A stretch of 61,680 bases of DNA, filler included. It is 4 parts of 4 records of this genome, joined end to end, with 100 filler letters (N's around TTAATTAATTAA, not from the genome) between each part and the next. Parts side by side here need not be neighbours in the genome. Positions count along the whole stretch, not along the records: positions 1 to 17,274 come from SRR20825006_2526; 3 more parts are not named here. One strand, 5' to 3'. Positions 1,317 to 17,374 of this stretch are shown in pieces. Every line of letters begins with the position of its first letter. The first letter of the stretch is position 1. The position numbers and the translations under genes were made by a program. Under the pieces are notes generated by a model. That model ran no database searches. It was given only the letters and a program-made list of their open reading frames with translations, and was not told where the DNA came from.

Positions 1317-1344
1317 TAGCCTTCTCTATTTTAAGAGAAGGCTA
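1317..1344 (-). terminator. Probable intrinsic terminator of the susC-led operon
   Basis: Perfect 11-bp inverted repeat TAGCCTTCTCT-N6-AGAGAAGGCTA about 35 bp downstream of the stop at 1378. Confidence 0.7.
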
Positions 1345-1377
1345 TTATACTATTGTAAAACCTTAACTAATTTATGT

Positions 1378-2454
1378 TTAAGGATTTGTTATTTTTAAAT
1401 CAGCACCTTTCATAGTTTTGGTATCGATTTTGGTATTTAAGATATTTAAAATAGTAGGTGCAATTTGATTACTGTATAATTGCTCATCATGTTTAACTTC
1501 TCCCAATGTATTTACATTAGCACCAAAAGCAATTAACCACACCTCATCTGCTCCCTTAATATCTCTTCCGTGACTTCTCCATGTTTTTAAAGGCGTTGTA
1601 CCACGACCATGATCTGTAGTAATTATAAAAGTTGTATTGTCTTTATAAAAAGGATCTGCTTGTACATATTCCCATAAATCTTTTATAAAAGAATCTGTAG
1701 TATGTGCCGATTTTAAATATGCTTCATAATGACCATCATGCGCAAAATCGTCTGTTTCTCCGTAGGAAATATAAACTACCTTAGGATGCTCTTTTTGTAT
1801 GTATTCTTTTGCATAGTGATGCGTAAAAGCATCCAAACGAACACTTCCCCATGGGCTAGGAATTTCAGTCTGCAATTGATTTAAAAACTCTTCTTTTTCG
1901 GTTAAGTCACCTTCTGCATTTCTAAATCCTGCATTTACAGGGATTCCACTTCTTTCATCATTAATTATAAAAGGAAACACATCCCAACTCCCAAAGGCTG
2001 CCACCTTATTTTTAAAATCTGCTGTGTTATTTAGCAATTCTAAAATAGTAATATTAGGATTATAAATCTTATCATTACTCTTTATGTTTACATCATCTGC
2101 AGCCCCTGTTAAAATTTCATTATAACCAGGGTAAGAAAACCACATCGTGTTTGTTAAATTCACCTTACTTCCTACATTTCTATTTCCATGAATCTGTCCG
2201 CTTTCAGCTACAAAATTCCATACAAATGGAAAAAGTGCAGTTCTACGTTCTTCTGGAGTTTCCTTCCAAAACATTCTCTTTAACCCTTCTGGATTAGCTA
2301 CATATTCTTTGTTAGCTACTAACTTCTCATCTGCTCCAGTAAATAGCTCCTGCCAACGAAGGCCATCTAACGTAATTAAAATTACTTTCTGATCTTTATC
2401 TTGTGCCGAAATAAAGCTCGTTATTAATAAAAGTAGTAAACTTATCTTTTTCAT
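1378..2454 (-). CDS. Secreted alkaline-phosphatase-superfamily hydrolase
   Basis: Signal peptide; AP-superfamily metal motifs ITLDGLR, FSYPGY (putative Ser nucleophile), ETDDFAH, TTDHG. Confidence 0.85.
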   Translation of the reverse strand: MKKISLLLLLITSFISAQDKDQKVILITLDGLRWQELFTGADEKLVANKEYVANPEGLKRMFWKETPEERRTALFPFVWNFVAESGQIHGNRNVGSKVNLTNTMWFSYPGYNEILTGAADDVNIKSNDKIYNPNITILELLNNTADFKNKVAAFGSWDVFPFIINDERSGIPVNAGFRNAEGDLTEKEEFLNQLQTEIPSPWGSVRLDAFTHHYAKEYIQKEHPKVVYISYGETDDFAHDGHYEAYLKSAHTTDSFIKDLWEYVQADPFYKDNTTFIITTDHGRGTTPLKTWRSHGRDIKGADEVWLIAFGANVNTLGEVKHDEQLYSNQIAPTILNILNTKIDTKTMKGADLKITNP

Positions 2455-2555
2455 TTGTTAATATTTATTGATTTAAAAAGTCAGATGTGATACCCTCAAT
2501 TATCATATCGATTGATTTGATAAAACTGCTAATGGGTATTTCATATTTTTATTTT

Positions 2556-4154
2556 TTATTTTGTTGTAAAAGTTGCGGTTTTAGACCAATCACTCCAATT
2601 TAAATTTTGATCTCTATAACGTACGCGCCAGAAATATTTAGTGTTAGATTTTAATAAAGGCATTTTCTCATCTGTAAGATCATCATCCTTTTGTCGGTTT
2701 TCATTATAATACCAATTTTGGTATTGCTTCCATCTATCTACTATAATATTAGAAAATTCAGCATCGGTAGCTAATTGCCAATTTGAAGCTGCATGAAAAC
2801 TATCTTTATAATCGCTTTCATAACCTCCCGCCTTCAACATTACATCTTTAATTGCTATATGCTCTCCCATTGGACTTTCTATTATTGGAGCGTAAGGCAA
2901 GCGTTTTTTCTTATAAATTACCATACTATCTGTAACCTCATTGTTTCTAGATTGTACAGTATTTCCCCTACTAACTCTTTTTACAACAAACTTAGGATTT
3001 TCTGGGTTTGGATCTACCTCTACCATTACAAATCCATACTCATCTTGAGTTACAGTAAATTCATCATAATCTCGTCCTTCAAATTCTCCCCAATTATCTA
3101 TAGCTCCTCCAGCAGAAGCTACATTAATCCACAAATGTTTATGTTCTTTAGATTGCCCTCTTGAATACCCATGTGTATGTCCGAAAAAATGTATGCTCGG
3201 TTTTCCAGTTTTGGTAGTAAAATTCTCTAATAATTCAACAACTTTTCCTGTGAAATCTGTCTCCCCAGGAATCCATAATTCCGATTTATGTGGATGATGT
3301 AATTGTGCAAAAACAAAATCTATTTCATTATTATTGGCTGTACGCTCTAAAAGTTCTTTTAACCAAATATACTGCTCTTTAGAGTCTCTATATCCGTCAT
3401 TTGAATTTAGCCCTATTATTCTTGTATTTCCATAATCTTTATACCACCAATGCTCGGCATAAGCTGGAGTTCCATTTTTAGGAAGACTAAAATACTTAAA
3501 ATAGAATGTAGAATTCTTTTCATGGTTCCCCAATACAGGATATACAGGTACATTTGAAAATAACTTCTTTGAAGGCTCAAAAAACTCATTTTGCCATTGT
3601 TCATATTTAGTTCCATTTTCAACTAAATCTCCAGGAATAAGCACTAAAGCCAGGTTGTCTGAAATATCTTCTCCATATTCTTTCTTCAGGTAGGTTAAAA
3701 TTCCTTCATTTACAATTTCAGCAAACTTTTCTGGTTCATTATGGTCTCTTTGCATATCGCTCATGGCTAAAACATTGAACGCTTTTTTATCTTCAGCAAA
3801 AGGAGGAGTTTTAAACTGATAAACATCTGAATACGTTTCTCCAGTTCTTACTCTATAATAATAAGTTGTAAAACGCTCTAATCCTTTAAGTGTTACCTCG
3901 TGAATTCTATGGTCGGAAAAATTAACATCGTAAGAAATTCCTGTCTCTTTTTTCTTTAAATCGGTTGTTTTGCCATACAATACTGTACTTTCTTCTCCTA
4001 CAGCTGTTTCCCACATAATAGTTATTTCTTGTGGAGAAGCGTTTTGTAAGTAAGGCGCTACTAATAAATTTTGTTTAACTGTTTGTGCATGAGTCAACAT
4101 TAAACTCAACATAAAAAAACAGATAAGCAGGCTTTTGGTATAAACTAATCTCAT
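2556..4154 (-). CDS. Secreted purple-acid-phosphatase-like (calcineurin-like) metallophosphoesterase with FN3-type domains
   Basis: Signal peptide; N-terminal HEVTLKGLERFTTYYYRV FN3 module; motifs SDMQ, GDLV, GNHE, HHP, GHTH; C-terminal YFWRVRYRD...WSDWS FN3 tail. Confidence 0.9.
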   Translation of the reverse strand: MRLVYTKSLLICFFMLSLMLTHAQTVKQNLLVAPYLQNASPQEITIMWETAVGEESTVLYGKTTDLKKKETGISYDVNFSDHRIHEVTLKGLERFTTYYYRVRTGETYSDVYQFKTPPFAEDKKAFNVLAMSDMQRDHNEPEKFAEIVNEGILTYLKKEYGEDISDNLALVLIPGDLVENGTKYEQWQNEFFEPSKKLFSNVPVYPVLGNHEKNSTFYFKYFSLPKNGTPAYAEHWWYKDYGNTRIIGLNSNDGYRDSKEQYIWLKELLERTANNNEIDFVFAQLHHPHKSELWIPGETDFTGKVVELLENFTTKTGKPSIHFFGHTHGYSRGQSKEHKHLWINVASAGGAIDNWGEFEGRDYDEFTVTQDEYGFVMVEVDPNPENPKFVVKRVSRGNTVQSRNNEVTDSMVIYKKKRLPYAPIIESPMGEHIAIKDVMLKAGGYESDYKDSFHAASNWQLATDAEFSNIIVDRWKQYQNWYYNENRQKDDDLTDEKMPLLKSNTKYFWRVRYRDQNLNWSDWSKTATFTTK

Positions 4155-4156
4155 CT

Positions 4157-5494
4157 CTATAAATTTGAAATACTGTTTTCTAAAATATGAATTGCTTTTA
4201 ACAATTCCTCTCGTGTAATTGTTAAAGGAGGCGATAATTGTAAAACATTCCCCGAAGAAACTTTAAAACTTAATCCTTCTCTTAAACAATTGTACATAAC
4301 TTTCTCGGCAGCTTCTAGGGCCTTTTCTTTAGTTAATCTATTTAAAACTAATTCAACTCCCCAAAGCATTCCAATCCCTCTTACATCTCCTATTATATCA
4401 AACTTTGTTTTTAATCTATTGAGTTCTGTTTTTAGAAAAGCTTCATCTGCTTTAACTTTCTCCAATAAACCTTCCACAATTCTAATCGTTTCCATTCCAG
4501 CTACTGCTCCAAGTGGACTTTTCTCGTGGGTGTAATGCCCCAAAGACAGTTCTCCAAATGTATTATATTTATCTCTTGTTATAACCGCTGCTTGCGGAAA
4601 TATTCCTCCCCCAAGTCCTTTTCCTAAACAAATAATATCTGGTTCTATAGAATAATGCTCAAAAGCAAACAATTTACCTGTCCTTCCTAAAGCTATTGGA
4701 ATTTCATCTAAAATAAGAAGAACCCCATATTTATCGCATAATTTGCGAGCCTCCTTCCAAAACTCTTTAGAAGGAATTTGTACGTCTGTATTTCTAATAG
4801 TTTCTGCTAAAAAAGTACCAATATCTCCTTCTTTAGCAAAAACATATTCCAAATATTCTAAACACTTGGCCTCATTATTTTCAAAAATCCCTCTATAGGT
4901 AACGGGAGGTGGAATTCTTTCTACTCCTGGCATTAGAGGCCCCATAGCTTCTCTAAAAACCGCTTCTCCTCCAACACTGATAGCATCTAAAGACGCTCCA
5001 TGAAAAGAATCCCAAAAAGAAACCACTTTAAACTTTCCTGTAATAGCTCTAGCCAATTTTAACGCTATTCCAATTGCAGAGCTTCCATTGGGCGTTAATA
5101 AAACTCTATTTAAATCTGATGGAGCTATAGACGCTAATTTCTCAGCAAATAAAACGGCTGGTTCATTGGTATACCTTCTTGTAGAAAAAGAAAGTGTTTT
5201 TAATTGCGCTATTAATTTTTGAATTAATTCCTCATTTCCAAAACCTATTTGATGCACATTATTACCATGAAAATCCAAATATTTATTTCCAGACAAATTC
5301 TCTATATAACTATTTTTAGATGATTTTAAAACATCCAAACAAGGAGTAGACATAGATTGATGCATAAAATAACGTTCGTCCTTTTCTAAAATTAACTGTG
5401 TATGCTTATCCTTTTCTCGAAGGTTCCATTTTTCCCTTTCTGAAGTAGTATTAATATCTCCTTCTGTTCTTTTATTAATTTCACCTTGCTTCAT
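4157..5494 (-). CDS. pbfA: Class-III PLP enzyme, (R)-1-hydroxy-2-aminoethylphosphonate ammonia-lyase (PbfA) type
   Basis: Subfamily motifs EGDIN, HQSMSTPCLD, DFHGNNVHQ, WDSFHGASLDAISVGGE, MGPLMPGVERIPP, GHYTHEKSP; PLP lysine in LGKGLGGG; phosphonate gene context. Start taken at ATG 5494 rather than TTG 5503. Confidence 0.8.
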   Translation of the reverse strand: MKQGEINKRTEGDINTTSEREKWNLREKDKHTQLILEKDERYFMHQSMSTPCLDVLKSSKNSYIENLSGNKYLDFHGNNVHQIGFGNEELIQKLIAQLKTLSFSTRRYTNEPAVLFAEKLASIAPSDLNRVLLTPNGSSAIGIALKLARAITGKFKVVSFWDSFHGASLDAISVGGEAVFREAMGPLMPGVERIPPPVTYRGIFENNEAKCLEYLEYVFAKEGDIGTFLAETIRNTDVQIPSKEFWKEARKLCDKYGVLLILDEIPIALGRTGKLFAFEHYSIEPDIICLGKGLGGGIFPQAAVITRDKYNTFGELSLGHYTHEKSPLGAVAGMETIRIVEGLLEKVKADEAFLKTELNRLKTKFDIIGDVRGIGMLWGVELVLNRLTKEKALEAAEKVMYNCLREGLSFKVSSGNVLQLSPPLTITREELLKAIHILENSISNL

Positions 5495-6743
5495 AAGGAC
5501 CAAATTTATTTACCACATTACGCTTTTCATCTTTATCATTCAAAATGTAAACATTGTATTTTTTTCCATCATTATAAACCCTTACTACAATATGTCCTTC
5601 CTGACTTTTATACGCATCTAAGCGATTGCCTATTACTTTTTTATTTGCAGCTAGCATTACTGTTGAAAACACATCTCGCTCCCCAGGATATATTTCTTTA
5701 CTAAGTATTCTTCTGAGCACTTCTTCTCCAGGATGATCTGACGACCAATTTTGTTGTACCCATACTCGAGGACGAAGTGTTCTTACATAAAATGCATTTT
5801 GAGAATCTCTATTTCCATGATGATTTAAGGTAGCAACATCAACAGGGCCTACAACAGGAGCAATATTGGATTCTAGGGAATTAAAATCGGTTGCCCCTAT
5901 TGCATTTACCCCGCTAATATCTCCTCCGGTATAATAATCAAACAAACCAAATGAAATTTTTATAACGGTACTTAAATTATTTTCAGAAGGAGAATCTCCT
6001 TCTGAAAATAATGCGTAGTAATTTTCCTTTTCTCCTGTCCAGACATTACCATTTACAGCAATATTTCTGACAGAAAAACTCTTATAATTTTCAGGATTAT
6101 ATAACAGTCTTATTTGATTTAGCATTCCTGCTTTTAGAACAGAATGTTTCAATCCATTTTTAGAGTGTACATCACTATACTTCCAATAATTTTTCAAAGT
6201 TGGAATTATATGATATTTATCTGCAGATAGCTCCTTTTGAACCTGTTCATCTTTTAAATCTATAGGAAACTGAGAACCTCTATCTATTAAGTTTTTAATA
6301 GGAATAGCATCTCCAACAGCAACAATTCCGGTTAATTGATACTTCCCTTTTTTAGAATATAACCGTGTACTATCTACTTCTCCAAAATGATCATCATGAT
6401 AATGCGTAATCAAGGCATAATCTAAAGTCTGCCCTTTTGGTTTTGGATGAAATTGATTTATATAATCTACAATCCATTCAGGAGCAGTTTTACTTCTATT
6501 AGGAAGCAATTTTGCATTTCTATCAGACAAAGTTCTTGGATGTGTTTCTGAGGTATCACCTGCATCTATAAGCAAAGTAGTTCCATCTGGAAAAACACAA
6601 AAAGTAGCGTCTCCTCTACCAGTGTTTATATGATGAATTTCTAAAATACCAGGTTCCCAATTTGGGTACGTCTCTTGAGAGATTCCTTTATAAAAGCACA
6701 GAATGAATAAAAAATATAAAGCTAGTTTTATAGTTGTTTGCAC
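5481..6743 (-). CDS. Secreted ComEC/Pce-like metallo-beta-lactamase-fold hydrolase
   Basis: GTG start, signal peptide; LEIHHINTGRGDA, LLIDAGD, THYHDDH (HxHxDH), YTGGD and LNHHG motifs. Confidence 0.85.
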   Translation of the reverse strand: MQTTIKLALYFLFILCFYKGISQETYPNWEPGILEIHHINTGRGDATFCVFPDGTTLLIDAGDTSETHPRTLSDRNAKLLPNRSKTAPEWIVDYINQFHPKPKGQTLDYALITHYHDDHFGEVDSTRLYSKKGKYQLTGIVAVGDAIPIKNLIDRGSQFPIDLKDEQVQKELSADKYHIIPTLKNYWKYSDVHSKNGLKHSVLKAGMLNQIRLLYNPENYKSFSVRNIAVNGNVWTGEKENYYALFSEGDSPSENNLSTVIKISFGLFDYYTGGDISGVNAIGATDFNSLESNIAPVVGPVDVATLNHHGNRDSQNAFYVRTLRPRVWVQQNWSSDHPGEEVLRRILSKEIYPGERDVFSTVMLAANKKVIGNRLDAYKSQEGHIVVRVYNDGKKYNVYILNDKDEKRNVVNKFGPYEAR

Positions 6744-6750
6744 GCTGTTT

Positions 6751-8388
6751 TTAATTTAAAAGTTCTGTAGAAACTAGTTGCTTTGGATTTTTACCATCTT
6801 TATAATAAACATCTAACCAACCATCTCCTCCCCCATTAAACCAAGCTACTCTTATAGCATGTTCTCCAGCATTAAGCTTAACAGTTCCAGATTTTTCTAG
6901 TACCCCATGGTCGCCATCATTAGCTACTACCAACTCATTATCAATCCATAGTTTACTCCCATCATCAGATCTAGTGTAGAAAGTATAATTAGCTGCTTTT
7001 TTAATATCTATAATTGCTGTATAAATTACTGCTGTGTTCTCTTTTATCTTCTCTTTTATTTCTTCTGAAGTGATTTCATAGGTGTTACCACTATCATCTG
7101 GAGTTTTATTGGACAGTTCAGGAAGAGAAGTAAGATTCACTAAATAATAAATTTTATAAGATACTCTCTTTCTATCATCATGACGAATTCTAAAAAAGGC
7201 TTCGCTTAAGGGACTCGATATTTTCCCCTTTAAAAATATTGCTGCTTTTACTACTTTATTGTCGGTTATATCAATAATACCCTCATATACTGTTGAATTT
7301 TTTGTAGGCATCGACCCATCCAAAGTATATCTAATAACACCTTCTTTATTTGGATTTATTATTTCCAATTTCGTTTCATTAAAAAAAAGACCTCCTGCTC
7401 TTTTATTCAAACTAGCTTCTGGCTTTATTATGGGAGCTACCAAACGATCTTCAATAAGATAGTCATCACCCTTTATTTCATTCCCTTCAAACAATGACAG
7501 AACAGGCTTTCCTATCCATGCTGTAGGCGTTTTAACACCTAATGCATAGGCAACGGTAGCAGCATTGTCATATTGATATACGGGCGTTTTAATTTCATAT
7601 CCCTTTTTAACTGATTTCCCCCAGGCAATAAATGGGATTTCAATTTCTGCTAAAGACTCCCCTCCATGTCCTTTTCCTACTCCACCATGATCCGAAGAAA
7701 TAATAACTAATGTATTTTCTAGTATTCCAGCTTTTTTAATTGCCGATAAAACCTCTCCTAATAATTTATCTCCTTTTGTAACCGATTCATAGTATTCTGG
7801 TGTTCCATGTCCGTATTCATGACCAGCATGATCAATATGGTCAAAATGAATAAAAGTAAAAGTCGGTTTTTTGTTCTTAATATAACTACTTGCTACGGCG
7901 GCAGTCTGTTCTTCTGTGTCTGCATGAATATCAAAATTAACAGCACTTTTCTCAAACAATCTACCAAAATCGCCCCAATGATAGATAGCACCTATCTCTG
8001 TATTTTCTTTTTGCTTATTTATTAAATTAAAGACTGTAGGAAACAAAAAATCTTCCCCTTGAACTACTGTAGGTAACTCAAAATTGTCTTTATTCCACGC
8101 ATTAGATGTAATTCCATGTTGAGAAGGGCTAGCTCCCATTATCATAGATGCCCAATTAGAACTAGAACTTGTAGGAAGTACGGCTCTTGCTCGCATGGTA
8201 GAAGCCCCTTCAGCAATAACCTTATCAAAATTAGGTGTGGAAGCATTTCTAATCCCATCTGGACTAAGTCCATCAAACCCAATTACAACAACATGTTTAA
8301 TTTCTCTGTTCTCAGTAGAATTATTATGGCAAGACCACAAGCCTAAAAGACTTGTGGTTACCATAAAAATGATTTTTTTAAATTTCAT
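6751..8388 (-). CDS. Lipoprotein: nucleotide pyrophosphatase/phosphodiesterase-type AP domain + Fn3-associated domain + PA14 domain
   Basis: Lipobox LWSC; GFDGL, PTSSSSNW, DHIDHAGH, SSDHGG; IRYTLDGSMPT (Fn3-associated); YTFYTRSDDGSKLWIDNELVVANDGDHG (PA14). Confidence 0.88.
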   Translation of the reverse strand: MKFKKIIFMVTTSLLGLWSCHNNSTENREIKHVVVIGFDGLSPDGIRNASTPNFDKVIAEGASTMRARAVLPTSSSSNWASMIMGASPSQHGITSNAWNKDNFELPTVVQGEDFLFPTVFNLINKQKENTEIGAIYHWGDFGRLFEKSAVNFDIHADTEEQTAAVASSYIKNKKPTFTFIHFDHIDHAGHEYGHGTPEYYESVTKGDKLLGEVLSAIKKAGILENTLVIISSDHGGVGKGHGGESLAEIEIPFIAWGKSVKKGYEIKTPVYQYDNAATVAYALGVKTPTAWIGKPVLSLFEGNEIKGDDYLIEDRLVAPIIKPEASLNKRAGGLFFNETKLEIINPNKEGVIRYTLDGSMPTKNSTVYEGIIDITDNKVVKAAIFLKGKISSPLSEAFFRIRHDDRKRVSYKIYYLVNLTSLPELSNKTPDDSGNTYEITSEEIKEKIKENTAVIYTAIIDIKKAANYTFYTRSDDGSKLWIDNELVVANDGDHGVLEKSGTVKLNAGEHAIRVAWFNGGGDGWLDVYYKDGKNPKQLVSTELLN

Positions 8389-8393
8389 AGATA

Positions 8394-9974
8394 TTAATTA
8401 TTCACAGACACATCCCACCAAAGCAATGTATTTAGATTATCTCCTCCCATTCTGCTCACAGCCTCTTGGTAGTTTGCATTGTTTGTAGATTTTACTGAAT
8501 TTGGATATTGAAAACGAACTGGCACTTTCCCTCCGTTAGCAGCATCTGGACCAGGCACTATTGCTGGCATATTGGTACGTCTCCAATCCGACCAAGCTTC
8601 AAAACCTGTGTAGAAAAGTGAAATCCATTTTTGCATAGCCACTTTCCCTAGTTTTTCTTCGGAAGTTCCTGTATAAGCTACTTTTTCTTGATTTATATAT
8701 GCATCTACATCAAAACTTGCCAAGCTTGTAGCTATTTCATTCCAACCTCCAGCATTAATTCTTTCTAGATAATACTCAAATGAAGCATAAATTCCATTTT
8801 CATAATACTGCTCTGATGTCCCTGCAGTAATAAAATTTTTCTCGCGAGCTTCCGCTAAAATAAACTGAAGTTCAGAATAACTCATTATAATAGTTTGAGA
8901 AGCTGTTGGAGAAGCATTTTCAGGATCACATGCTCTACATGTAAGTAAAACCCCCAAACGAGAAATAAAATTAGAACCCGATTTTTGTGGATCCCCAGAA
9001 GGACTATATGCCAATGCATCTTCATCATTTAAACCATTTGGCATCCCTACATAATCGTCCATATTATCCGAATAAATCCCTTTTCCTGATGCCGAAGTAG
9101 GCTGGGCAAAAACAATTAATCTTTGGTCGTTTAAATCCTTTAGCCTAGTTTCTAAAGTAGTACTTAACCTTACCTCATCATAACTTCCAGATCGAGTAGT
9201 AAATTTAGGCTGTGGATTATCAGAATTCCATTGTATCACTGCAGCATCTCCATTGCTTTCAAAAATTGGAAATTCTGAAGGAGCATTTGTTATTTCCTTC
9301 ATTTCCGAAATTGCTCTCGCTTTATCTACATCACTAATTCTCATTAATAATCTTAATCGCAAAGAGTTTGAGAACTTTCTCCATTTAGTAACATCTCCAT
9401 TGTAAAGAATATCCCCAGAGATAGTAGCAGCTCCTTTTAATAAATTATTTGCAACAGTAAGATCTGTAATTAGTCCATCATAAATTTCACTTTGTGGTGT
9501 AAATTCTGGTGTAATATTATCTTCTCTTATTCCTTTTGTTGCTTGTGTGTATGGCACATCTCCATAAGCATCTGTTAAGTAAGAATAAATCCAAGATTTT
9601 ACTATTAAAGCAACAGCTAAGTAATTTTCTTGTCCTTTTACACCTTCCGTAGATTCTATAATATTCTCAACATCTCTAAGCGCATCATAGGCATCGTTAT
9701 ATGGGTTTCCTGTTGGCGACCAATTATAGCGATCTCCACTTGTAAACTGTAGTCTTGCTCCATATTGTGCAACTGTAAAGCCTTGTTCCCAGCCCATATT
9801 ACCCCAATTGTAAGACATTTGTCTTAAAATCCCTGGCAATAATAATTCTGATGCTGCCTTTTCAGGATAATTAGGATTTGCATTTATTTCTTCAAAATCT
9901 TTAGTACAGGCATTTAATGAAAGTATCATTGTAGCCCCTAAAAATAGCTTCTTTATAAATTGATTTTTCTTCAT
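8394..9974 (-). CDS. susD: SusD/RagB family nutrient-binding outer-membrane lipoprotein
   Basis: Lipobox LNAC, CTKDFEEINANPN, LTDAYGDVPY, FEAWSDWRRT, C-terminal LWWD; immediately downstream of susC. Confidence 0.95.
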   Translation of the reverse strand: MKKNQFIKKLFLGATMILSLNACTKDFEEINANPNYPEKAASELLLPGILRQMSYNWGNMGWEQGFTVAQYGARLQFTSGDRYNWSPTGNPYNDAYDALRDVENIIESTEGVKGQENYLAVALIVKSWIYSYLTDAYGDVPYTQATKGIREDNITPEFTPQSEIYDGLITDLTVANNLLKGAATISGDILYNGDVTKWRKFSNSLRLRLLMRISDVDKARAISEMKEITNAPSEFPIFESNGDAAVIQWNSDNPQPKFTTRSGSYDEVRLSTTLETRLKDLNDQRLIVFAQPTSASGKGIYSDNMDDYVGMPNGLNDEDALAYSPSGDPQKSGSNFISRLGVLLTCRACDPENASPTASQTIIMSYSELQFILAEAREKNFITAGTSEQYYENGIYASFEYYLERINAGGWNEIATSLASFDVDAYINQEKVAYTGTSEEKLGKVAMQKWISLFYTGFEAWSDWRRTNMPAIVPGPDAANGGKVPVRFQYPNSVKSTNNANYQEAVSRMGGDNLNTLLWWDVSVNN

Positions 9975-9984
9975 TTCTATTGAA

Positions 9985-12900
9985 TTAAAAGTCTACTCGT
10001 AAATTAAAAGTGAATGATCTTGTACTTGGATACGACATGTTTTCGATTCCAGGTTGCAATGTCCCTCCCGAAACAGCTACTGTTTCTGGGTCAAAATGTG
10101 GGTTTTCTGTCCACAGAAGTAAGTTTCTTCCGCTAAGAGAAAATCTAGCATTTGTAATTGGCAACTGCTTTATAAAGCGCTTAGGAATAGTGTACCCCAA
10201 TGTTACCTCTCTTAGTTTTGTGTAAGAAGCATCATATTTTGCAGCCTCCACATTATCTCTTTCGTAATATCTGTTATTATAAGTTCTAGCATCTACATTA
10301 GTAGTATTAGGTTCATAAACCCCATCCGATACTTGTACAACTCCATCTGCAACAATTCCTGTTTCTCTTCCTACTAAAGTTTCCTTTAATTGTCCAGAAG
10401 TACTTCCAATTGTTTTTGTTCTAGACACTACAATTCCTCCTTGGCGGGTATCTAATAGAAATCCAAAATCAAAAGCCTTATATCTAAAGCTATTCTGAAA
10501 CCCAAGCGTATAATCTGGAGCATAATCTCCTTGGTACACCAAATCATCTGTACGTAACGGAATTCCATTTTCATCAATAATCATTTCCCCAAAGTACGGG
10601 CTATTCTCATCTTCTACTCTTTGAAATCCTCTTCCGTAAATTGCACTAATAGAACCTCCTTCTCTTGCTTGAATAAAAGCTGAATTTCTTTCGGTTAAGG
10701 TATAATCTACCCCTCCCAAATCTGTAACCTCACTTTGGTTTTTAGCAAAATTGAAGGTTGCTTTCCATGAAAAATTATCATTTCTAACTGGAGTTATTCC
10801 TAAAATAGCTTCAAAACCATAATTTTTAACCTCCCCAGCATTGATAAGTTTACTAGCGTAACCACTAGCAATATCTGCATCAATAGAAATAATCTGGTTC
10901 TTTGTTAAGGAGCTATAATAAGTAGCATCTATATTTAAGCGACTCTGAAAAAAGCGTAAGTCAACCCCAAATTCATAAGAAGAAGTAATCTCTGGTTTTA
11001 AATTTGCATTTGGTATTAAAGAAGATTCTGTTAACACCGGATACTCTCCAAACGGATTCTCATTGGTATAAAAACTAGATAATTTATAAGGATCTGTATC
11101 ATTACCAACTTCTGCATAAGCTGCTCTCAATTTGGCAAAACTTACAAACTCTGGCAACACAAACATATCGCTAAACACTGTACTCAATGTTACAGAAGGG
11201 TAGAAATATGAATTATTATTAGAAGGAAGCGTACTAGACCAATCGTTTCTTCCTGTTATATCTAAAAACAGATAATTATTATAGGCTAAACGAGCAAAAC
11301 CGTACACACTATTAATACGTTTATTTTGATCTATGGAAGTAACTTCTAATGGTTTTCTATTATTATTAAAAGAATACACCCCTGGATTTATCAGTTCTGG
11401 CGCTACCGTTTGGTCGTACTCTTGATTTTGTCTAAGTTGATTAGCTCCTACAGAAAAGTTTACATTCCATTTTTCATTAAAAGTTTTATCGTATGACAAT
11501 AGGAAGTCTGTATTAATCTCTTCAAAAAACACATTATCTTCTCTATAATATCCTAACGGAAAACGTTGCGTACTAAAAGCTCTCTTTTTAGCTCTTAAAT
11601 CTCGGTAAAAATCGCGTCCTGTACGAAGTAACAGTTTCCAATTATCGGAAATATCATAGGTTAAATTTACATTTCCATATACCCGATCTTTGTCTTGAGA
11701 ATTTGTATTTTCATACACATTAAAGAAAGGATTATCATGGTAATTGTAATTGTAATTAAACTGCTGCACGCCTTCTTGCCCTGGCATCCAATAATCTCTT
11801 AAACTATTGGTATTTAATTGTCTTCCGTACCAAATAAAAAGATACATAATACTTTCTGTTCCATAACTCAACGACGGTCTGTTGCCACTATCACTTTTTA
11901 CATAATTTACATTTGCATTAACCTTAACTTTATCAGTTAAATTAAGACCCGCACTTAAATTAAATGTATTTCTCTCTAAATCTGTATTAGGAACAACTCC
12001 TTCTTGATCAAAATTCTGATAGCTGAAACGGATATTCCCTAAATCTCCAGCTTTAGAAATAGAAATACTATTGGTTTTGGTAAATCCAGTATTAAAAAAA
12101 TCTTTTGTGTTATCTGGATTAGAAACCCAAGGAGTTGCTATAATTGGAGAATTACTTATTAAATCTCCCCCACGAGTTCCGTCTTGTCTAGGCGAATCGA
12201 ACTGCGGAATTAAAAGTCCTGTATCTAATCTTGGTCCCCAACTTTCGTCAACACCATCTGCAATTCCTCCTCCTTTTCCATCTACAAAAGAGAATTGTTG
12301 ATTATTACCTTGACCGTATTCATTTTGCCAATCTGGTAACATTAAAATATTATCTACTGTTACTCCAGTATTTATGGTAACCCCTATTTTTCCATCTTTA
12401 GAAGTTCCTTTTTTTGTTGTGATGATGATAGCCCCGTTTGCCGCTCTAGAACCATATAAAGCTGCCGCCGCTGGCCCTTTTAAAACGTTCATCGACTCAA
12501 TATTCTCTGGGTTTATCTCAGCAGCTCCATTTCCGTAATCCACATCTTGAGTCCCAGCTCCAGAAGATCCAACTATTTCATTACTAATAGGAGTACCATC
12601 TATAATAAACAAAGGAGAGTTTCCATTAATATTTAACGACGCATCTCCACGAATAGAAACTCTAGCAGACCCTCCAATTCCTGAAGGACTATTAGTTACT
12701 TGAAGTCCCGCTACTTTACCAGAAATACTATTTAATAGATTAGGCTCTCTTGCCGAACTAATTTGGTCGCTATCAAGTTCTTGAGAAGCATATCCTAGCG
12801 ACTTCTTTTCTCTTTCAATACCTAGAGCAGTTACCACCACTGCATCTAATTGTTGAGAATCTGGTTGTAAAACAACTTTTACTCCATTCTCTAATGCTGA

Positions 12901-13146
12901 ATTAATTTCTTGAGAAAGATACCCAACGTAAGAAATTATCAATATTTCGTTGCCTTGGGGGAGCTCTATCTCAAAATTTCCGTCAAAATCTGTAGCAACT
13001 CCATTATTTTGACCTTTTATCATAATGGATGCACCTGGTAAAGGTGTGCTATTTTCATCTAATACACTCCCTTTAAATAAGGTTTGAGAGTAACTTGTAA
13101 TAAATGCGAAGAACGCAAATACACATAATAATTTCCGCTTATTCAT
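9985..13146 (-). CDS. susC: SusC/RagA family TonB-dependent outer-membrane transporter
   Basis: N-terminal carboxypeptidase-regulatory-like domain (TDFDGNF), plug motifs PLFIIDG and LKGPAAAALYGSRAANG, RNDWSSTL, terminal Phe. Confidence 0.97.
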   Translation of the reverse strand: MNKRKLLCVFAFFAFITSYSQTLFKGSVLDENSTPLPGASIMIKGQNNGVATDFDGNFEIELPQGNEILIISYVGYLSQEINSALENGVKVVLQPDSQQLDAVVVTALGIEREKKSLGYASQELDSDQISSAREPNLLNSISGKVAGLQVTNSPSGIGGSARVSIRGDASLNINGNSPLFIIDGTPISNEIVGSSGAGTQDVDYGNGAAEINPENIESMNVLKGPAAAALYGSRAANGAIIITTKKGTSKDGKIGVTINTGVTVDNILMLPDWQNEYGQGNNQQFSFVDGKGGGIADGVDESWGPRLDTGLLIPQFDSPRQDGTRGGDLISNSPIIATPWVSNPDNTKDFFNTGFTKTNSISISKAGDLGNIRFSYQNFDQEGVVPNTDLERNTFNLSAGLNLTDKVKVNANVNYVKSDSGNRPSLSYGTESIMYLFIWYGRQLNTNSLRDYWMPGQEGVQQFNYNYNYHDNPFFNVYENTNSQDKDRVYGNVNLTYDISDNWKLLLRTGRDFYRDLRAKKRAFSTQRFPLGYYREDNVFFEEINTDFLLSYDKTFNEKWNVNFSVGANQLRQNQEYDQTVAPELINPGVYSFNNNRKPLEVTSIDQNKRINSVYGFARLAYNNYLFLDITGRNDWSSTLPSNNNSYFYPSVTLSTVFSDMFVLPEFVSFAKLRAAYAEVGNDTDPYKLSSFYTNENPFGEYPVLTESSLIPNANLKPEITSSYEFGVDLRFFQSRLNIDATYYSSLTKNQIISIDADIASGYASKLINAGEVKNYGFEAILGITPVRNDNFSWKATFNFAKNQSEVTDLGGVDYTLTERNSAFIQAREGGSISAIYGRGFQRVEDENSPYFGEMIIDENGIPLRTDDLVYQGDYAPDYTLGFQNSFRYKAFDFGFLLDTRQGGIVVSRTKTIGSTSGQLKETLVGRETGIVADGVVQVSDGVYEPNTTNVDARTYNNRYYERDNVEAAKYDASYTKLREVTLGYTIPKRFIKQLPITNARFSLSGRNLLLWTENPHFDPETVAVSGGTLQPGIENMSYPSTRSFTFNLRVDF

Positions 13147-13148
13147 TT

Positions 13149-13164
13149 TTTCGTATTTGTAAAC
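13149..13164 (-). promoter_or_regulatory. Candidate operator copy 1 (GTTTACAAATACGAAA) next to the susC start
   Basis: 14/16 identical to the copy at 17105-17120. Confidence 0.55.
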
Positions 13165-13281
13165 TTTATTAAGTTATTTAGTTATGCAAATATCGAAGAG
13201 GTAAGTTAAGTTAAACTACATGCACTATTAAATCATTGCAATCATACTGTAAATTCAGTTAACAAAAAGTTAACAACCTTA

Positions 13282-13297
13282 GTTTACTAATAGTTAC
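13282..13297 (+). promoter_or_regulatory. Candidate operator copy 2 (GTTTACTAATAGTTAC) between susC and the XRE gene
   Basis: 13/16 identical to the copy at 17105-17120. Confidence 0.5.
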
Positions 13298-13375
13298 TTT
13301 TCTGTTTTTCATTAATTTGAATAAATAACAGAATCAAAAGCATAAAATAGGGTAAATAATTTACAGTATTTCTTT

Positions 13376-13383
13376 TAATTTTG
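13376..13383 (+). promoter_or_regulatory. Bacteroidota -7 promoter element for the XRE gene
   Basis: TAATTTTG matches the TAnnTTTG consensus, 21 bp upstream of ATG 13405. Confidence 0.5.
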
Positions 13384-13404
13384 AGGTGTAAAAAACTCTA
13401 CTAA

Positions 13405-13971
13405 ATGGAAGATTATCTTATAGGTATTGGTAAGCGAATAAAAGAAATTAGAAAAAATGATGGTAAAACCATTAATGATGTTGCTGTAAAAGCAGAAGTA
13501 ACTAGCGGACTTATTTCTCGTATTGAAAATGGAAGAACAATTCCTTCCCTCCCAGTATTTATAAAAATAGTAAATGCGCTTGAAGTTGAAGTAACCGATT
13601 TTTTTAAAGGAATACCAAATGGTAGTGGCGCTAATTTTATTGTTTCAAGAAAAGAAGAAAATACCCCTATTGATAAAGAGGAAGAGGCAGAAGGCTTTAC
13701 CTACAACTTTATATTTAGCAAACAACTTTCTTCCCTTGGTTTTGAAACAGTTCTCTTAGAAGTAAAACCAAATTCTAAAAGAGAAAAAGTAACTACCGAT
13801 GCATTTGAATTTAAATACATTCTTTCAGGAGAATGTTACTATATTATTGGAGAAGAAGAAGTTTTACTAAAAGAAGGAGATTCCATATTTTTTGATGGTA
13901 GAATTCCACACGTACCAGAAAACAGAAGTAAACAACCTTCTAAAATGCTAGTTGTTTACTTCTTTATATAA
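13405..13971 (+). CDS. XRE-family HTH + cupin transcriptional regulator
   Basis: IGKRIKEIRK...SGLISRIENGRTIPSL HTH; C-terminal cupin EFKYILSGE...LKEGDSIFFDGRIPH. Confidence 0.93.
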   Translation: MEDYLIGIGKRIKEIRKNDGKTINDVAVKAEVTSGLISRIENGRTIPSLPVFIKIVNALEVEVTDFFKGIPNGSGANFIVSRKEENTPIDKEEEAEGFTYNFIFSKQLSSLGFETVLLEVKPNSKREKVTTDAFEFKYILSGECYYIIGEEEVLLKEGDSIFFDGRIPHVPENRSKQPSKMLVVYFFI

Positions 13972-13976
13972 TACCT

Positions 13977-14654
13977 TTATTTAAGCAATATATCTTTTAA
14001 TTCTAATAAAGATGCTACTACATAAGTAGGATGAGCACTCAGTAATTGCTCTTTTGTATGAGCTCCCGTAGTAACTCCTACCGTAATTGCACAGTTTGCA
14101 TTTTTTCCTTCTTCAATATCTATAATAGAATCTCCAGCCTTTAACACCTTATTTGCCTCAAGAACATTGGTTAATTCCATTGCCTTAGAAATCATGTCTG
14201 GACATGGCCTTCCATTTACTACATCATCGGCAGTAATTAAAACATCATATTGTTCTCCCTTTGTCCAGTTTAATTTATTCAACAACAAGGTTGCAATTTC
14301 TTTATTGTACCCTGTATTTAATGCAACTTTAATATTGTTACTTTTTAGTAATTTAAATAACTCTTCAACACCGTTACAAGCTTTGACCGCTAATTTTTTG
14401 TATGCTTTATCCAGTAATACTTTGAAGTCTTCAAAAATAACATCCGACTTACTTTTATCTTCATTTAATTCTTCTAAAACATCTTTAATAGCTTGATGCT
14501 TTTCTTTCCCAGCGCCATGTGTAAGCACAAAGTCTAATTCTACTTTATACCCTGCATTATTTATTGCTTTCTGTAAGGTTTTATAAACAACATTACCTTC
14601 GTTCACTGTAGTTCCAGCCATATCAAAAACGGCAAGTTTTATTTTATTTTGCAT
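13977..14654 (-). CDS. Phosphonatase-like HAD hydrolase (PhnX-like, TIGR03351 type)
   Basis: HAD motif I FDMAGTTV as in PhnX, cap GAGKEKHQAI with candidate Schiff-base Lys, LNTGY, GRPCPDMI, GDSIIDIEEG. Confidence 0.88.
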   Translation of the reverse strand: MQNKIKLAVFDMAGTTVNEGNVVYKTLQKAINNAGYKVELDFVLTHGAGKEKHQAIKDVLEELNEDKSKSDVIFEDFKVLLDKAYKKLAVKACNGVEELFKLLKSNNIKVALNTGYNKEIATLLLNKLNWTKGEQYDVLITADDVVNGRPCPDMISKAMELTNVLEANKVLKAGDSIIDIEEGKNANCAITVGVTTGAHTKEQLLSAHPTYVVASLLELKDILLK

Positions 14655-14655
14655 T

Positions 14656-15819
14656 TTAAAAATTAAAAATTGAATTAATATTTTCTTTAGAAAAACCTGC
14701 GCTTCCTGTCATTCCTTTTCCTCCAATTCCAGTTACGATATGAATATTTTTATCTATTGTTTTCAAATAAATATCGCTTTCCTTGCACTGCGAATACATT
14801 CCATACCACCTATGCTGAATGGCATAATTTGGTAAATAGAATATTTTTTTAGCCTCCTCAATAATAAATTGATCTATATCCATATTTAAATCAAAACCTA
14901 AACTTTCCTTTTCTTTAACTGATGCATACTCATGAGAATCGCCTATAATTACAGAACCATCTACTGCTTGCTTAAACAAAATATGCACTCCCCATTTTTT
15001 TTCTAAACTCTCAGAAGATTCTTTTTCTTTTATCTTTTTAAATGAAGGGCATTCGAAAAAAGCTTCATATCTTCTTATAGAAAGTCCCGTAAGAATTGCC
15101 CCCTTCATTTTATAATTTAATGGTTGAGGCTTGGTTGCCATCATCTGTAATTTGGAGATTATTAATTCACTTTCAGAAAATAATTCAGGATATAAATTCT
15201 CAAAATCACTTCCATTACAAATAATCACTTTTTCGGCTGTAACAACCATTCCGTCTGCTGTAAATACTTTTACACATTCTCCTACAGATTCATTTCTTAC
15301 CACTGTCTTTCCAGAAAAAAGTGCTAATCCCTTTGTTTGTAAATAAGCATGAAGCTTACTTATCATAACTCGAGGTTCTACTAAAACCTCATCAGGAAAG
15401 AATAAAGACTCTTTTACATAAGCCTCATTTATGCCTGCATAATTATTAATTGTTTTTTCTTTAGTCCACAATTCGGACGTATAATTATTTGCTTGGTTAA
15501 TTTTTTTTAACTCGTGTAATAATTTAACTTCCTCCTCATTAGAAGCTATATAAACCGATCCTTCTTGGCGTACAGAAATATCAAATTTTGATTGAATCTC
15601 CTTATATATTTTCAGACTCTCCCTACCAAAAGTCTGCCATTTCGTGTTCATTCCAGAAGGAACTACTTGTCCGAAATTTCTAACAGTAGCCCCTTGAAGT
15701 ATTTTATTTTTCTCTATTAATGCTACTTTTAACCCTTTATTAATGGCATGATAAGCATGAAAACTCCCCAATACTCCTCCTCCAATAACAACAAGATCAT
15801 ACTTCTCAATATTATTCAT
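14656..15819 (-). CDS. FAD-dependent oxidoreductase, phosphonate-associated TIGR03364 type
   Basis: GGGVLG Rossmann motif, GATVRNFGQV, IIGDSHEY, TGIGGKGMT; flanked by a PhnX-like gene and DUF5690. Confidence 0.88.
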   Translation of the reverse strand: MNNIEKYDLVVIGGGVLGSFHAYHAINKGLKVALIEKNKILQGATVRNFGQVVPSGMNTKWQTFGRESLKIYKEIQSKFDISVRQEGSVYIASNEEEVKLLHELKKINQANNYTSELWTKEKTINNYAGINEAYVKESLFFPDEVLVEPRVMISKLHAYLQTKGLALFSGKTVVRNESVGECVKVFTADGMVVTAEKVIICNGSDFENLYPELFSESELIISKLQMMATKPQPLNYKMKGAILTGLSIRRYEAFFECPSFKKIKEKESSESLEKKWGVHILFKQAVDGSVIIGDSHEYASVKEKESLGFDLNMDIDQFIIEEAKKIFYLPNYAIQHRWYGMYSQCKESDIYLKTIDKNIHIVTGIGGKGMTGSAGFSKENINSIFNF

Positions 15820-17101
15820 AAGCTATGTTTAAAAGATGTGATATTTTTTTTTCTGAAGACTTATATTTCTTTTTAAAATAATTTAGAGAAGCCACTGCAA
15901 CAATACAACCCAGCGCTGCAATAAGGTAACATCCATAAATGAAAAAGTTTAACCACGATACTCCTCCCTGACCAAAATTCTTATAAAGCAACACGGCAAT
16001 ACTTCCTAAATAGCCAAAAGCATCTGCTATATAAATAAGAAATCCAGCATTTCCTTTAATTCTAAAAGCTGCTATCATTCTGTCAAAAAATATACAATTA
16101 AAAGGCACATAACATATATATAATCCGAAGCCTACGCTTATCATCCAGAAAATTTCGCTAATCAATTCTAATTGATAGAATACCGTAAGCAACCCTATTA
16201 CGAACGCTCCCCCAAAAAGCAAATAATGGTAATAAATAAAAACTCTAAAATTGCTTTTTATAAAAGCAAATAGTCCTAAAATAACAAGCACTAAAATAGC
16301 TATTGGAATCTCAGAAAATGTGTAAATAGCTATACTATCCCTAAGCCCTAATGCATCCCATATCTCTCGAGAGAAATTATCTCTATAATCTCTTAATGCC
16401 GTAAGAGCCGCATAAAAAAACACTAATATTACAATTGGAAAAAAATAGGTTTTAATCAAATTAGCCCTATCTACTTTACTCATTGGTTTTCTTTCTGCTC
16501 GTAAGGAAATATCTTCTGGTGTTGGTGAGGGGATTCGTTCTAAAAGATAAGAGAATATTAAAAAAGGAACTATAAATATTGCTCCAGTCACCGCAGGCAT
16601 CCAAAACTCATTAACACCAATCCATCTCATTGAAATAAGTCCCACAGACTTTACGGCTCCACTAGAAACTATAAAACTAGAGCACAATACTACTCCCAAT
16701 ATCTCTGTAGTTTTTCTCCCTTCTAAATATGAAAAAACAATCCCCCAAATCACTCCCAACGGAAGTCCATTTAAAAACATAAAAACAAGATTATAGGGAG
16801 CTGGTACAACGGCAAATAACACCAAGCTAATTTCTGCCACTGCAATCATTGTTATTAATAGCAATAAACGCTGATTATTTCTGAGTTCTGAAATAAGTTT
16901 AATCCCAATAAACTTTGAAAGCATATATCCAAGAACCTGCGCTATTATAAGAATAATTTTATAATCTACCTCCCAAAAACTCAGCCCCTCATATGTAGCA
17001 ACAGTAAATGGCTTCCTAAAGGCATACATACAAAAGTAAGTACCAAAGGCAGCAAAAGAACCATATAATAATGTTTTAATATCTGTTTTTGTATATTTCA
17101 A
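15812..17101 (-). CDS. DUF5690 family MFS-like membrane transporter
   Basis: About 12 hydrophobic segments; YFCMYAFRKPF, QVLGYMLSKFIGIKLISE, FSYLEGR, GFLIYIADAFGYLGS; TTG start. Confidence 0.85.
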   Translation of the reverse strand: MKYTKTDIKTLLYGSFAAFGTYFCMYAFRKPFTVATYEGLSFWEVDYKIILIIAQVLGYMLSKFIGIKLISELRNNQRLLLLITMIAVAEISLVLFAVVPAPYNLVFMFLNGLPLGVIWGIVFSYLEGRKTTEILGVVLCSSFIVSSGAVKSVGLISMRWIGVNEFWMPAVTGAIFIVPFLIFSYLLERIPSPTPEDISLRAERKPMSKVDRANLIKTYFFPIVILVFFYAALTALRDYRDNFSREIWDALGLRDSIAIYTFSEIPIAILVLVILGLFAFIKSNFRVFIYYHYLLFGGAFVIGLLTVFYQLELISEIFWMISVGFGLYICYVPFNCIFFDRMIAAFRIKGNAGFLIYIADAFGYLGSIAVLLYKNFGQGGVSWLNFFIYGCYLIAALGCIVAVASLNYFKKKYKSSEKKISHLLNIAYE

Positions 17102-17104
17102 AAT

Positions 17105-17161
17105 GTTTACAAATAGTAAATTTATGGATGTAAAATTCGATAAATAATTACTATTTGTAAT
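17105..17161. promoter_or_regulatory. Candidate operator copies 3 and 4, inverted, upstream of the DUF5690 operon
   Basis: TTACAAATAGTAA at 17107-17119 and its exact reverse complement TTACTATTTGTAA at 17148-17160. Confidence 0.6.
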
Positions 17162-17274: not shown

Positions 17275-17374
17275 NNNNNNNNNNNNNNNNNNNNNNNNNN
17301 NNNNNNNNNNNNNNNNNNTTAATTAATTAANNNNNNNNNNNNNNNNNNNNNNNNNNNNNNNNNNNNNNNNNNNN
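17275..17374. other. Artificial contig-joining spacer
   Basis: N44-TTAATTAATTAA-N44 (stops in all six frames); base composition jumps from AT-rich to GC-rich. Confidence 0.99.

Follow-up and report, generated by a model that had tools for sequence, protein, structure and literature searches.

What would a SusC/SusD-like outer membrane pair import when the genes that share its operon encode phosphoesterases and a phosphonate-degrading lyase instead of glycosidases? The question is raised by a locus at positions 1317–17115 of a 61,680-nt stretch of DNA (the window), on a single contig (window 1–17274) that is 99.1–99.4% identical to a scaffold of Galbibacter orientalis DSM 19592, a culturable type strain of a marine genus that served as our context genome (G001). 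Phosphonates account for much of the dissolved organic phosphorus in the sea, and natural 2-aminoethylphosphonate (AEP) is mostly esterified to glycans and lipids. Characterised AEP pathways begin at free AEP, and to our knowledge there is no enzyme known that frees AEP from its carriers. An earlier note on this stretch had proposed a complete route, from capture of phosphonate-bearing material at the outer membrane to mineralisation in the cytoplasm. We find that the locus is real and conserved and that it is very probably dedicated to aminophosphonate acquisition; on balance, if with some reserve, we read it as a Pus-type locus for the acquisition and mineralisation of aminophosphonates, in which a SusCD-like importer is accompanied by phosphoesterases rather than glycosidases.

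Gene families were called with Pfam and NCBIfam profiles and judged against curated cut-offs. The first of two operons lies on the minus strand and opens with the gene for a 1053-aa SusC-like TonB-dependent transporter (9985..13146; TIGR04056, 674 bits against a cut-off of 368; Plug, CarboxypepD_reg and barrel domains), followed after 10 nt by the gene for a 526-aa SusD-like surface lipoprotein of a lineage that we call type A (8394..9974; SusD-like_2, 321 bits; lipobox LNAC). Behind this pair stand genes for four hydrolases, all with N-terminal signal peptides: a 545-aa nucleotide pyrophosphatase/phosphodiesterase (NPP)-type lipoprotein with CHB_HEX_C and PA14 modules (6751..8388; PF01663, PF13290, PF07691; LWSC lipobox), a 420-aa putative Pce-like esterase of the metallo-beta-lactamase (MBL) fold (5481..6743), a 532-aa purple-acid-phosphatase-like (PAP-like) metallophosphoesterase with a C-terminal Ig-like domain (2556..4154; Pur_ac_phosph_N, Metallophos, Ig_Rha78A_N) and a small, 358-aa NPP-like hydrolase of the alkaline phosphatase (AP) superfamily (1378..2454). 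Set among them, and overlapping the MBL gene by 23 nt, is the gene for PbfA (4157..5503; NF049939, 707 bits against a cut-off of 525, profile positions 1–441 of 442), a predicted cytoplasmic protein in which no signal peptide was detected. Spacing within the operon is −23 to +10 nt, with 101 nt ahead of the last gene as the exception, and a terminator-like hairpin on the same strand (1317..1344; 11-pair stem, T-rich tail) stands at its end, 34 nt past the last stop codon.

The second operon, likewise on the minus strand, encodes a polytopic DUF5690 membrane protein presumed to be an inner membrane aminophosphonate permease (15812..17101; PF18943, 561 bits), a PbfD-type FAD oxidoreductase (14656..15819; TIGR03364, 396 bits against a cut-off of 285) and, 1 nt away, a PhnX-like hydrolase of the haloacid dehalogenase (HAD) superfamily, presumed to act on phosphonoacetaldehyde (13977..14654; TIGR03351, 239 bits against a cut-off of 219). 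An XRE regulator with helix-turn-helix (HTH) and cupin domains (13405..13971, plus strand; HTH_3/HTH_19 and Cupin_2) is divergent from susC. All eleven genes named in the earlier note were found where it had placed them, by open reading frame (ORF), Pfam and NCBIfam. Its picture of four exported phospho-ester hydrolases and a PbfA-type lyase behind susC-susD agrees with the signal peptides, the packed spacing and the hairpin, and its assignment of the cytoplasmic enzymes to known families is borne out by the scores of PbfA, TIGR03364 and TIGR03351, all above curated cut-offs. The regulator does lie between the two operons, in what the comparisons below establish as one conserved unit with PbfA among exported hydrolases, and the statement that glycoside hydrolases are missing also stands: Pfam found no glycoside hydrolase, polysaccharide lyase or carbohydrate esterase family among the 11 locus proteins, which carry only accessory CHB_HEX_C, PA14 and Ig_Rha78A_N modules. 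A role in phosphonate biosynthesis was considered and rejected; a Ppm/Ppd-like gene was not seen in the locus by Pfam. Contigs from X19, an oligo-dT RNA library, and X18, guessed to be RNA, cover parts of the locus and span the PAP/PbfA, PbfA/MBL, NPP/SusD and SusD/SusC junctions, with DNA carry-over possible in both the coverage and the junctions, so that neither is taken as a sign of transcription or of an operon. A sigma-70 promoter scan returned 53 sites, fewer than the 70 in shuffled sequence; the sigma-70 consensus does not apply to Bacteroidota promoters.

The exported hydrolases all fall in superfamilies capable of phosphodiesterase chemistry. The NPP domain scores 116 bits against a PF01663 cut-off of 23, and an alignment to human ENPP4 keeps the FDG, Asn, DxxGH and SDHG motifs, with Ser in place of the nucleophile Thr; the metal-ligand and nucleophile roles of the aligned residues are those we presume for ENPP4. 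Among the 12 NPP-PA14 sequences compared, 10 have a Cys in a lipobox-like context (mostly LWSC). The MBL protein falls in no Pfam family, and its HYHDDH motif (HxHxDH) is invariant in 8/8 orthologues. Its best sequence matches in the PDB are three entries for pneumococcal phosphorylcholine esterase, Pce/CbpE (E 1.4e-6 for 1wra, the best, to 9.6e-6), with the likeness to Pce confined to two short stretches. For the PAP-like enzyme there is a weak PDB match to purple acid phosphatase 6git. The small NPP-like protein matches the Metalloenzyme, Phosphodiest and Sulfatase families over its C-terminal half, keeps D30, S107, D235/H239 and D281/H282 invariant in 10 orthologues, and gives weak matches to LtaS and the phosphoglycerate mutase iPGM in a profile search; a single-sequence PDB search found no match for it. 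AlphaFold2 models of the MBL and small NPP-like proteins were built from shallow alignments of 8 and 10 orthologues, respectively. Foldseek matched the low-confidence MBL model (predicted local distance difference test, pLDDT, 63) to MBL-fold structures throughout its top results, headed by a ComEC domain (8.8e-12) and Pce (4.4e-9, about 14–15% identity in the structural alignment), and placed the small NPP-like model, also of low confidence (pLDDT 54), in the sulfatase/LtaS/iPGM/YejM fold. Coming from two low-confidence models, these results back fold class only and not function.

The cytoplasmic steps are supported by matches to characterised families, PbfA and PbfD/TIGR03364. According to the available text of the respective papers, PbfD1 of A. 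baumannii is a TIGR03364 member that converts N-methyl-AEP and AEP to phosphonoacetaldehyde (PMC10590968), and PbfA yields the same product from R-1-hydroxy-AEP (R-HAEP; PMC8154272). The best PDB match of the HAD enzyme is the Bacillus cereus phosphonoacetaldehyde hydrolase 2iof (E 6e-17), and the HMMER alignment to solved PhnX covers residues 67–198, plus residues 4–20 to a second entry. For DUF5690, the nearest named clusters by language-model features are major facilitator superfamily transporters (score 0.90), which is a lead only; a PDB sequence search found no match, and the literature searched held no experimental study of DUF5690, its sole mention being unrelated.

Both operons may answer to one regulator. 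The XRE-cupin protein aligns with PuuR (NF007408) over residues 1–181 of 185 (E 1.5e-11), at 44 bits and so under the cut-off of 211, and shares only the HTH-plus-cupin architecture with it. Its conservation, at 68–82% identity across loci, ranks with the highest in the locus. An alignment of the susC upstream regions of nine loci (A3) contains invariant blocks, one of them the near-palindromic 10-mer TTTACAAATA / TATTTGTAAA, which stands 15–20 nt upstream of susC in nine loci, whatever SusCD lineage follows. In the 61.7-kb window it has exactly two exact matches, both at operon starts: TATTTGTAAA directly upstream of the susC start (13154..13163) and a second copy directly upstream of the DUF5690 start (17106..17115). 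Across 25 related-locus sequences (422 kb) there are 21 matches, 20 of which lie upstream of susC or DUF5690, and one related locus (L007) has two copies upstream of its DUF5690. Within those 25 sequences the 10-mer is absent from loci without an adjacent regulator and from the Arenibacter ethanolamine loci described below. We regard it as a candidate operator of the XRE-cupin regulator.

To see how far the arrangement extends, we searched 201 Flavobacteriaceae genomes, each from a different genus but for a single exception. In 13 of these genomes PbfA is above its cut-off, at 15 sites; for 14 of the sites, all but the one on the reference scaffold, flanks of up to 10 kb in either direction were compared with the window proteins. 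The collinear order susC-susD-NPP-PA14-MBL-PbfA recurs at 8 of the 14; among these eight, the PAP-like gene is present at seven, the small NPP-like gene at all eight, and the divergent regulator with the HAD gene upstream at seven. A Sediminicola metagenome-assembled genome has all 11 genes in the same order, and Sinomicrobium a shorter version. The same gene order is found in at least nine genera, at 57–80% protein identity, with the enzymes uniformly at 57–74% across Flavobacteriaceae loci. Both SusC and SusD lie within 10 kb of PbfA at 10 of the 14 sites; of the others, one has SusD only (at a contig end), one has only a weak SusC-like match, and two have neither, one of these on a 14-kb contig. 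The reference genome has 18 matches to the window SusD (several in the same open frames) per 4.5 Mb, so that a random gene would lie within 10 kb of a SusD in at most about 8% of cases, and the observed 10 of 14 is much more than chance would give. Two of the hydrolases were profiled across genomes, and both go with PbfA: at an identity of 60% or more, MBL orthologues occur in 11 genomes, every one PbfA-positive; eight weaker matches (37–44%) fall mostly in PbfA-negative genomes; and of the 12 genomes that encode full-length NPP-PA14, 10 are PbfA-positive.

Beyond the family, part of this set persists. A wider sample of 401 Bacteroidota genomes held 16 above the PbfA cut-off, and 15 sites were taken, two Flavobacteriaceae genomes being left aside. 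An NPP-CHB_HEX_C-PA14 protein (42–49% identity) is present at 8 of these 15 sites and DUF5690 at 9, several sites also having the HAD enzyme, the DAO oxidoreductase and the XRE-cupin regulator. Because PbfA, DUF5690 and an exported phosphodiesterase with glycan modules recur even without SusCD, we take these three as the durable core, with SusCD an outer membrane solution used mainly in Flavobacteriaceae. One SusCD-free version of the phosphonate locus (L037 300-16720, G248; similar in L036, L038 and L039) combines a PAP-like enzyme with a type IX secretion tail, a Ca-dependent phosphatidylinositol-specific phospholipase C (PI-PLC), an NMT1-domain histidine kinase, NPP-PA14, DUF5690, PbfA and HAD with a PAP-CHB_HEX_C-PA14 fusion, a second class-III aminotransferase, a DAO oxidoreductase and an XRE-cupin regulator. 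Related loci add PhoX, alkaline phosphatase or PI-PLC. Separately, at one locus (L040 690-19970, G337) the genes for a plain 678-aa TonB-dependent receptor and for a PF04185 phosphoesterase fused to a beta-propeller precede the set HAD-DUF5690-PbfD-PbfA-small NPP-like; this is another outer membrane solution for the same pathway.

The sequence of events that we propose begins at the surface and in the periplasm, where the four exported enzymes would cleave the P–O ester that ties AEP, N-methyl-AEP or 1-hydroxy-AEP (HAEP) to a carrier, most likely a glycan (phosphonoglycan or glycoprotein) and possibly also lipid head groups. SusCD would bring across the outer membrane either a fragment that still bears the phosphonate or the aminophosphonate once freed, and DUF5690 would carry the free aminophosphonate into the cytoplasm. 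There, PbfD (from AEP and N-methyl-AEP) and PbfA (from R-1-hydroxy-AEP) would produce phosphonoacetaldehyde, releasing ammonia or methylamine, and the PhnX-like HAD hydrolase would cleave its C–P bond to give acetaldehyde and phosphate. The PuuR-like XRE-cupin protein, probably a sensor of an amine intermediate, would control both operons through the common 10-mer. The gene content, the export signals, the families of PbfA, PbfD and TIGR03351 and the conservation of both locus and 10-mer are observed; all substrates, together with ester release, what SusCD and DUF5690 carry and the tie between regulator and 10-mer, are inferred.

As substrates, glycan-bound aminophosphonate esters are favoured by domain and paralogue evidence. 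The NPP protein carries CHB_HEX_C and PA14 modules, and other families fuse these same modules to a PAP-like enzyme. Pce, the nearest solved relative of the MBL protein, is an enzyme that we take to remove phosphocholine from teichoic acid. In a PbfA-negative genome (G009), an NPP-CHB_HEX_C-PA14 protein 47% identical to that of the window is encoded beside SusCD, two GH92 mannosidases, a metallophosphoesterase, a HAD hydrolase and an SSF transporter (L049 1700-19970), a set that may be a polysaccharide utilisation locus (PUL) for phosphodiester-decorated mannans. An MBL paralogue (37–41% identity) lies beside an AraC regulator, fucosidases, sulfatases and a short NPP in another genome (L051 2085-15716, G182), a context which suggests that the wider MBL family acts on decorated marine glycans.

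Several observations weigh against this reading or parts of it. Across PbfA loci, SusD identities fall into classes of 68–72%, 34–37% and 26–30%, and in a maximum-likelihood tree of 25 SusDs the PbfA-locus members occupy at least three to four lineages; to judge from these sequences, SusCD is a swappable module and not a dedicated phosphonate clade. Outside Flavobacteriaceae, a SusCD pair is found at only 1 of the 15 PbfA sites (L045). The type A clade (99/100 support) unites the window SusD and five other PbfA-locus SusDs with four from Arenibacter; these four nest within it on a short branch, and their sister group consists of two PbfA-locus sequences (99/99). In five Arenibacter loci with close SusCD (SusD 73–74% and SusC 77–78% identical; one at a contig end), tblastn found no phosphonate genes beside the pair. 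The annotated one, in Arenibacter echinorum (L008 1-20700; also L009, L010 and L012), has an ethanolamine/inositol-catabolic context: an extracytoplasmic function (ECF) sigma/FecR pair, a SusC with an STN domain, which the window SusC lacks, SusD, an ethanolamine-permease-like transporter (TIGR00908, 349 bits under a cut-off of 382), and a glutamine-synthetase-like ligase, an aldehyde dehydrogenase, an Fe-alcohol dehydrogenase and a class-I amidotransferase, as in a gamma-glutamylation-type amine pathway. Genes like iolA, iolE and iolG for inositol catabolism lie upstream, with a GH92 nearby, and loci of this kind may serve SusCD-linked utilisation of ethanolamine or head groups. PbfA is present elsewhere in 4/4 Arenibacter genomes searched, and the two Arenibacter PbfA loci examined read DUF5690-susC-susD-NPP-MBL-PbfA-PAP with a different SusCD (SusD about 30% identical). 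The Arenibacter result suggests that type A SusCD may recognise an aminoethyl-phosph(on)ate head group, which counts against a large glycan as cargo; and because the locus has no glycoside hydrolase, it could not trim a large glycan. A PDB sequence search with the window SusD returned matches without a functional clue.

The enzymes add further points on the same side. The four exported proteins, all of promiscuous superfamilies, could be general phosphodiesterases or phosphomonoesterases, and both structure models are, as said, of low confidence. The HAD enzyme is under the cut-off of the PhnX model TIGR01422 (108 against 220 bits), passing TIGR03351 only, and its cap region, which in PhnX presumably holds the Schiff-base lysine known from the B. 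cereus enzyme, lies outside the alignment. For the complete route that had been proposed, the outcome is mixed: the conserved unit and the known cytoplasmic families stand, and the idea of a SusCD devoted to phosphonates does not. The earlier note would have counted close SusC/D homologues away from phosphonate genes as a refutation, and the five Arenibacter loci are in part such a case.

The best-surviving alternative, which we consider unlikely, is a general phosphate-scavenging Pus cluster. Broad exported esterases would act on nucleic acids and lipid head groups, SusCD would import organophosphate esters, the phosphonate genes would be merely co-located members of a phosphorus-stress regulon and AEP would enter independently. 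The promiscuity of NPP, PAP and AP-superfamily enzymes fits this view, as do the PhoX, alkaline phosphatase or PI-PLC genes added in related loci and the NPP-PA14 homologue that exists without PbfA; and the PusCD precedents, in the available text of their sources, are inducible by inorganic phosphate (Pi) and sit beside phosphodiesterases and phosphomonoesterases (PMC8115612; 10.64898/2026.09.03.749221). Against it, the regulator is a PuuR-like XRE-cupin protein and not PhoBR or an ECF sigma pair, the PbfA gene has exported hydrolases on both sides and shares 23 nt with one of them, MBL orthologues at 60% identity or more came up solely in PbfA-positive genomes (11/11), and NPP-PA14 and DUF5690 accompany PbfA across families.

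Less likely again is small-molecule import, in which SusCD would take, in place of glycan fragments, free AEP or HAEP, phosphoethanolamine or their glycerol esters, NPP-PA14 would free the head group outside and periplasmic enzymes would finish the small esters. Here the type A clade (99/100), which mixes SusDs of PbfA loci and Arenibacter ethanolamine loci, is relevant, and the Arenibacter branch, being short, shows no hint of a shift in function; for PusCD1 the available text gives inositol-1-phosphate, a very small ligand (10.64898/2026.09.03.749221), and the locus has no glycosidase. However, SusD lineages at 26–37% identity occur in the same enzyme context and do not imply a single ligand pocket, the carbohydrate-binding modules on the enzymes point to polymers, and no phosphoesterase lies within 10 kb in the Arenibacter locus L008. 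A chance juxtaposition of a glycan-type SusCD operon and an unrelated phosphonate operon is highly improbable, for although the SusCD lineage is exchangeable and its closest Arenibacter relatives lack phosphonate neighbours, such a reading is contradicted by the conservation of the same order in at least nine genera at 57–80% identity, by a SusD near PbfA at 10 of 14 sites against at most about 8% expected, by PbfA inside the susC operon and by the 10-mer common to both operons.

A more specific version of the aminophosphonate reading is possible, and we put it forward tentatively. The ligand of the type A cassette would be a small zwitterion, the 2-aminoethyl-phosph(on)ate head group (AEP or HAEP, and phosphoethanolamine as their isostere, either free or in small esters), the exported enzymes would strip aminophosphonate esters off glycans that are otherwise left uneaten, and SusCD cassettes would be swappable behind a fixed regulated promoter/operator. 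Head-group recognition, if true, would account for one cassette serving both C–P-cleaving (Galbibacter) and ethanolamine (Arenibacter) loci without accelerated change. The locus is in any case a clean natural example of SusCD cassette exchange in a conserved frame of enzymes and regulator.

The limits of the locus follow from G. orientalis, where the genes past both ends are unrelated to it, so that we set its span at window 1317–17115. Past DUF5690 the scaffold encodes a beta-lactamase-family protein, an amidohydrolase, a DAO oxidoreductase and TauE, none related to the locus, and past the last hydrolase it has giant repeat proteins and insertion sequence (IS) elements. In the window itself a contig joint cuts the sequence 173 bases upstream of DUF5690. 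Four contigs are joined there by artificial linkers (44 N + ttaattaattaa + 44 N; 17275–17374, 37659–37758 and 54917–55016), and because their GC contents differ sharply (about 32%, 60%, 42% and 35%, in order) the assembly probably mixes organisms. Only the first contig is Galbibacter-like, and 32% of the words of the whole window recur in the reference genome. At the start of the window, a truncated ORF (1–798, minus strand) is the N-terminus of a 1287-aa repeat protein, in whose region the BLAST comparison also showed an internal repeat of 90 nt; in G. orientalis (L005 9134-17636) a 1531-aa DUF4347 protein and transposase genes of IS21 type come after the 1287-aa protein. The stretch with the locus is also present in runs labelled as seawater or marine metagenomes, from several studies.

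The general concept of Pus clusters is already in print, and the locus type has been glimpsed in soil Flavobacterium and not worked out there. In the available text of Lidbury et al. (PMC8115612; 10.1101/719427), Pi-inducible PusCD complexes of Flavobacterium are co-localised with phosphodiesterases and phosphonate-degrading enzymes, and phnX, dao, dgdA, deoB and gpmI1 are named as PusCD neighbours in the legend to Fig. 4 of the 2019 preprint (10.1101/719427). These are the names that an annotation pipeline would be expected to give to the HAD, PbfD, PbfA, NPP and small AP-superfamily genes, respectively; NCBIfam returns weak phosphopentomutase and iPGM matches for the NPP and small AP-superfamily genes. 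On the wording of that legend, the phosphonate-type PusCD cluster of Flavobacterium would be the same locus type, and a homologous cluster has then probably already been seen responding to phosphate depletion in a soil Flavobacterium. Growth on phosphatidylinositol requires PusCD1/2, which bind inositol phosphate and are called the first characterised complexes of TonB-dependent transporter and surface lipoprotein for organophosphorus in the available text (10.64898/2026.09.03.749221). The earlier note had called outer membrane capture and ester release uncharacterised; with Pus clusters that include phosphonate enzymes in print and PusCD1/2 characterised, this is too broad, though the literature searched contained no paper dissecting a phosphonate-type SusCD locus. 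The idea of ester release, for which there are now specific candidate enzymes, is plausible. What the locus supplies, in a culturable type strain, is four candidate AEP esterases, a candidate inner membrane permease (DUF5690) and a candidate outer membrane importer.

Set beside known systems, the locus combines features of several. Like classical PULs, it has a susC/susD pair first in an operon with exported hydrolases, and CHB_HEX_C and PA14 modules; unlike them, it has no CAZy-type glycoside hydrolase, lyase or esterase and no hybrid two-component, SusR or ECF regulator, and its cytoplasmic genes cleave C–P bonds. Pus clusters are closer, with a SusCD-like pair in an operon with exported phosphodiesterases or phosphatases (four exported enzymes here) and no carbohydrate-active enzymes, and SusD here is polyphyletic, as PusD is in the available text on those clusters. 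By the same text, however, the characterised PusCD1/2 act in the use of phosphatidylinositol and glycerophosphoinositol, with an ECF sigma/anti-sigma pair linked to them, whereas the window locus, from a marine genus, combines PbfA, PbfD, a PhnX-like enzyme and DUF5690 with a PuuR-like XRE-cupin regulator.

With the hydrolytic AEP pathways, as given in the available text of Zangelmi et al. (2021, PMC8154272; 2023, PMC10590968), the locus shares the clustering of PbfA, a TIGR03364 oxidase and a PhnX-type hydrolase without PhnW, matching the "PbfD2 + PhnX" pathway of Mariniblastus fucicola. Those pathways have been studied as cytoplasmic, with SusC, TonB and the outer membrane not found in the available text of PMC10590968, nor TonB, esterase or phosphodiesterase in that of PMC8154272, and the window hydrolase belongs to the TIGR03351 "PhnX-like" family and not to the PhnX equivalog. 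The AEP transporters AepXVW, AepP and AepSTU (Murphy et al. 2021, PMC8316502) likewise place dedicated uptake beside AEP catabolic genes, but uptake here would presumably be by a SusCD pair and DUF5690. Finally, Pce/CbpE of Streptococcus pneumoniae (PDB 1wra, 2bib) differs in the choline-binding module that the window MBL protein lacks; the two have the HxHxDH metal motif in common, and removal of an amino-alcohol phosphate head group from a glycopolymer would, by analogy, be the very chemistry that we propose for the window MBL enzyme.

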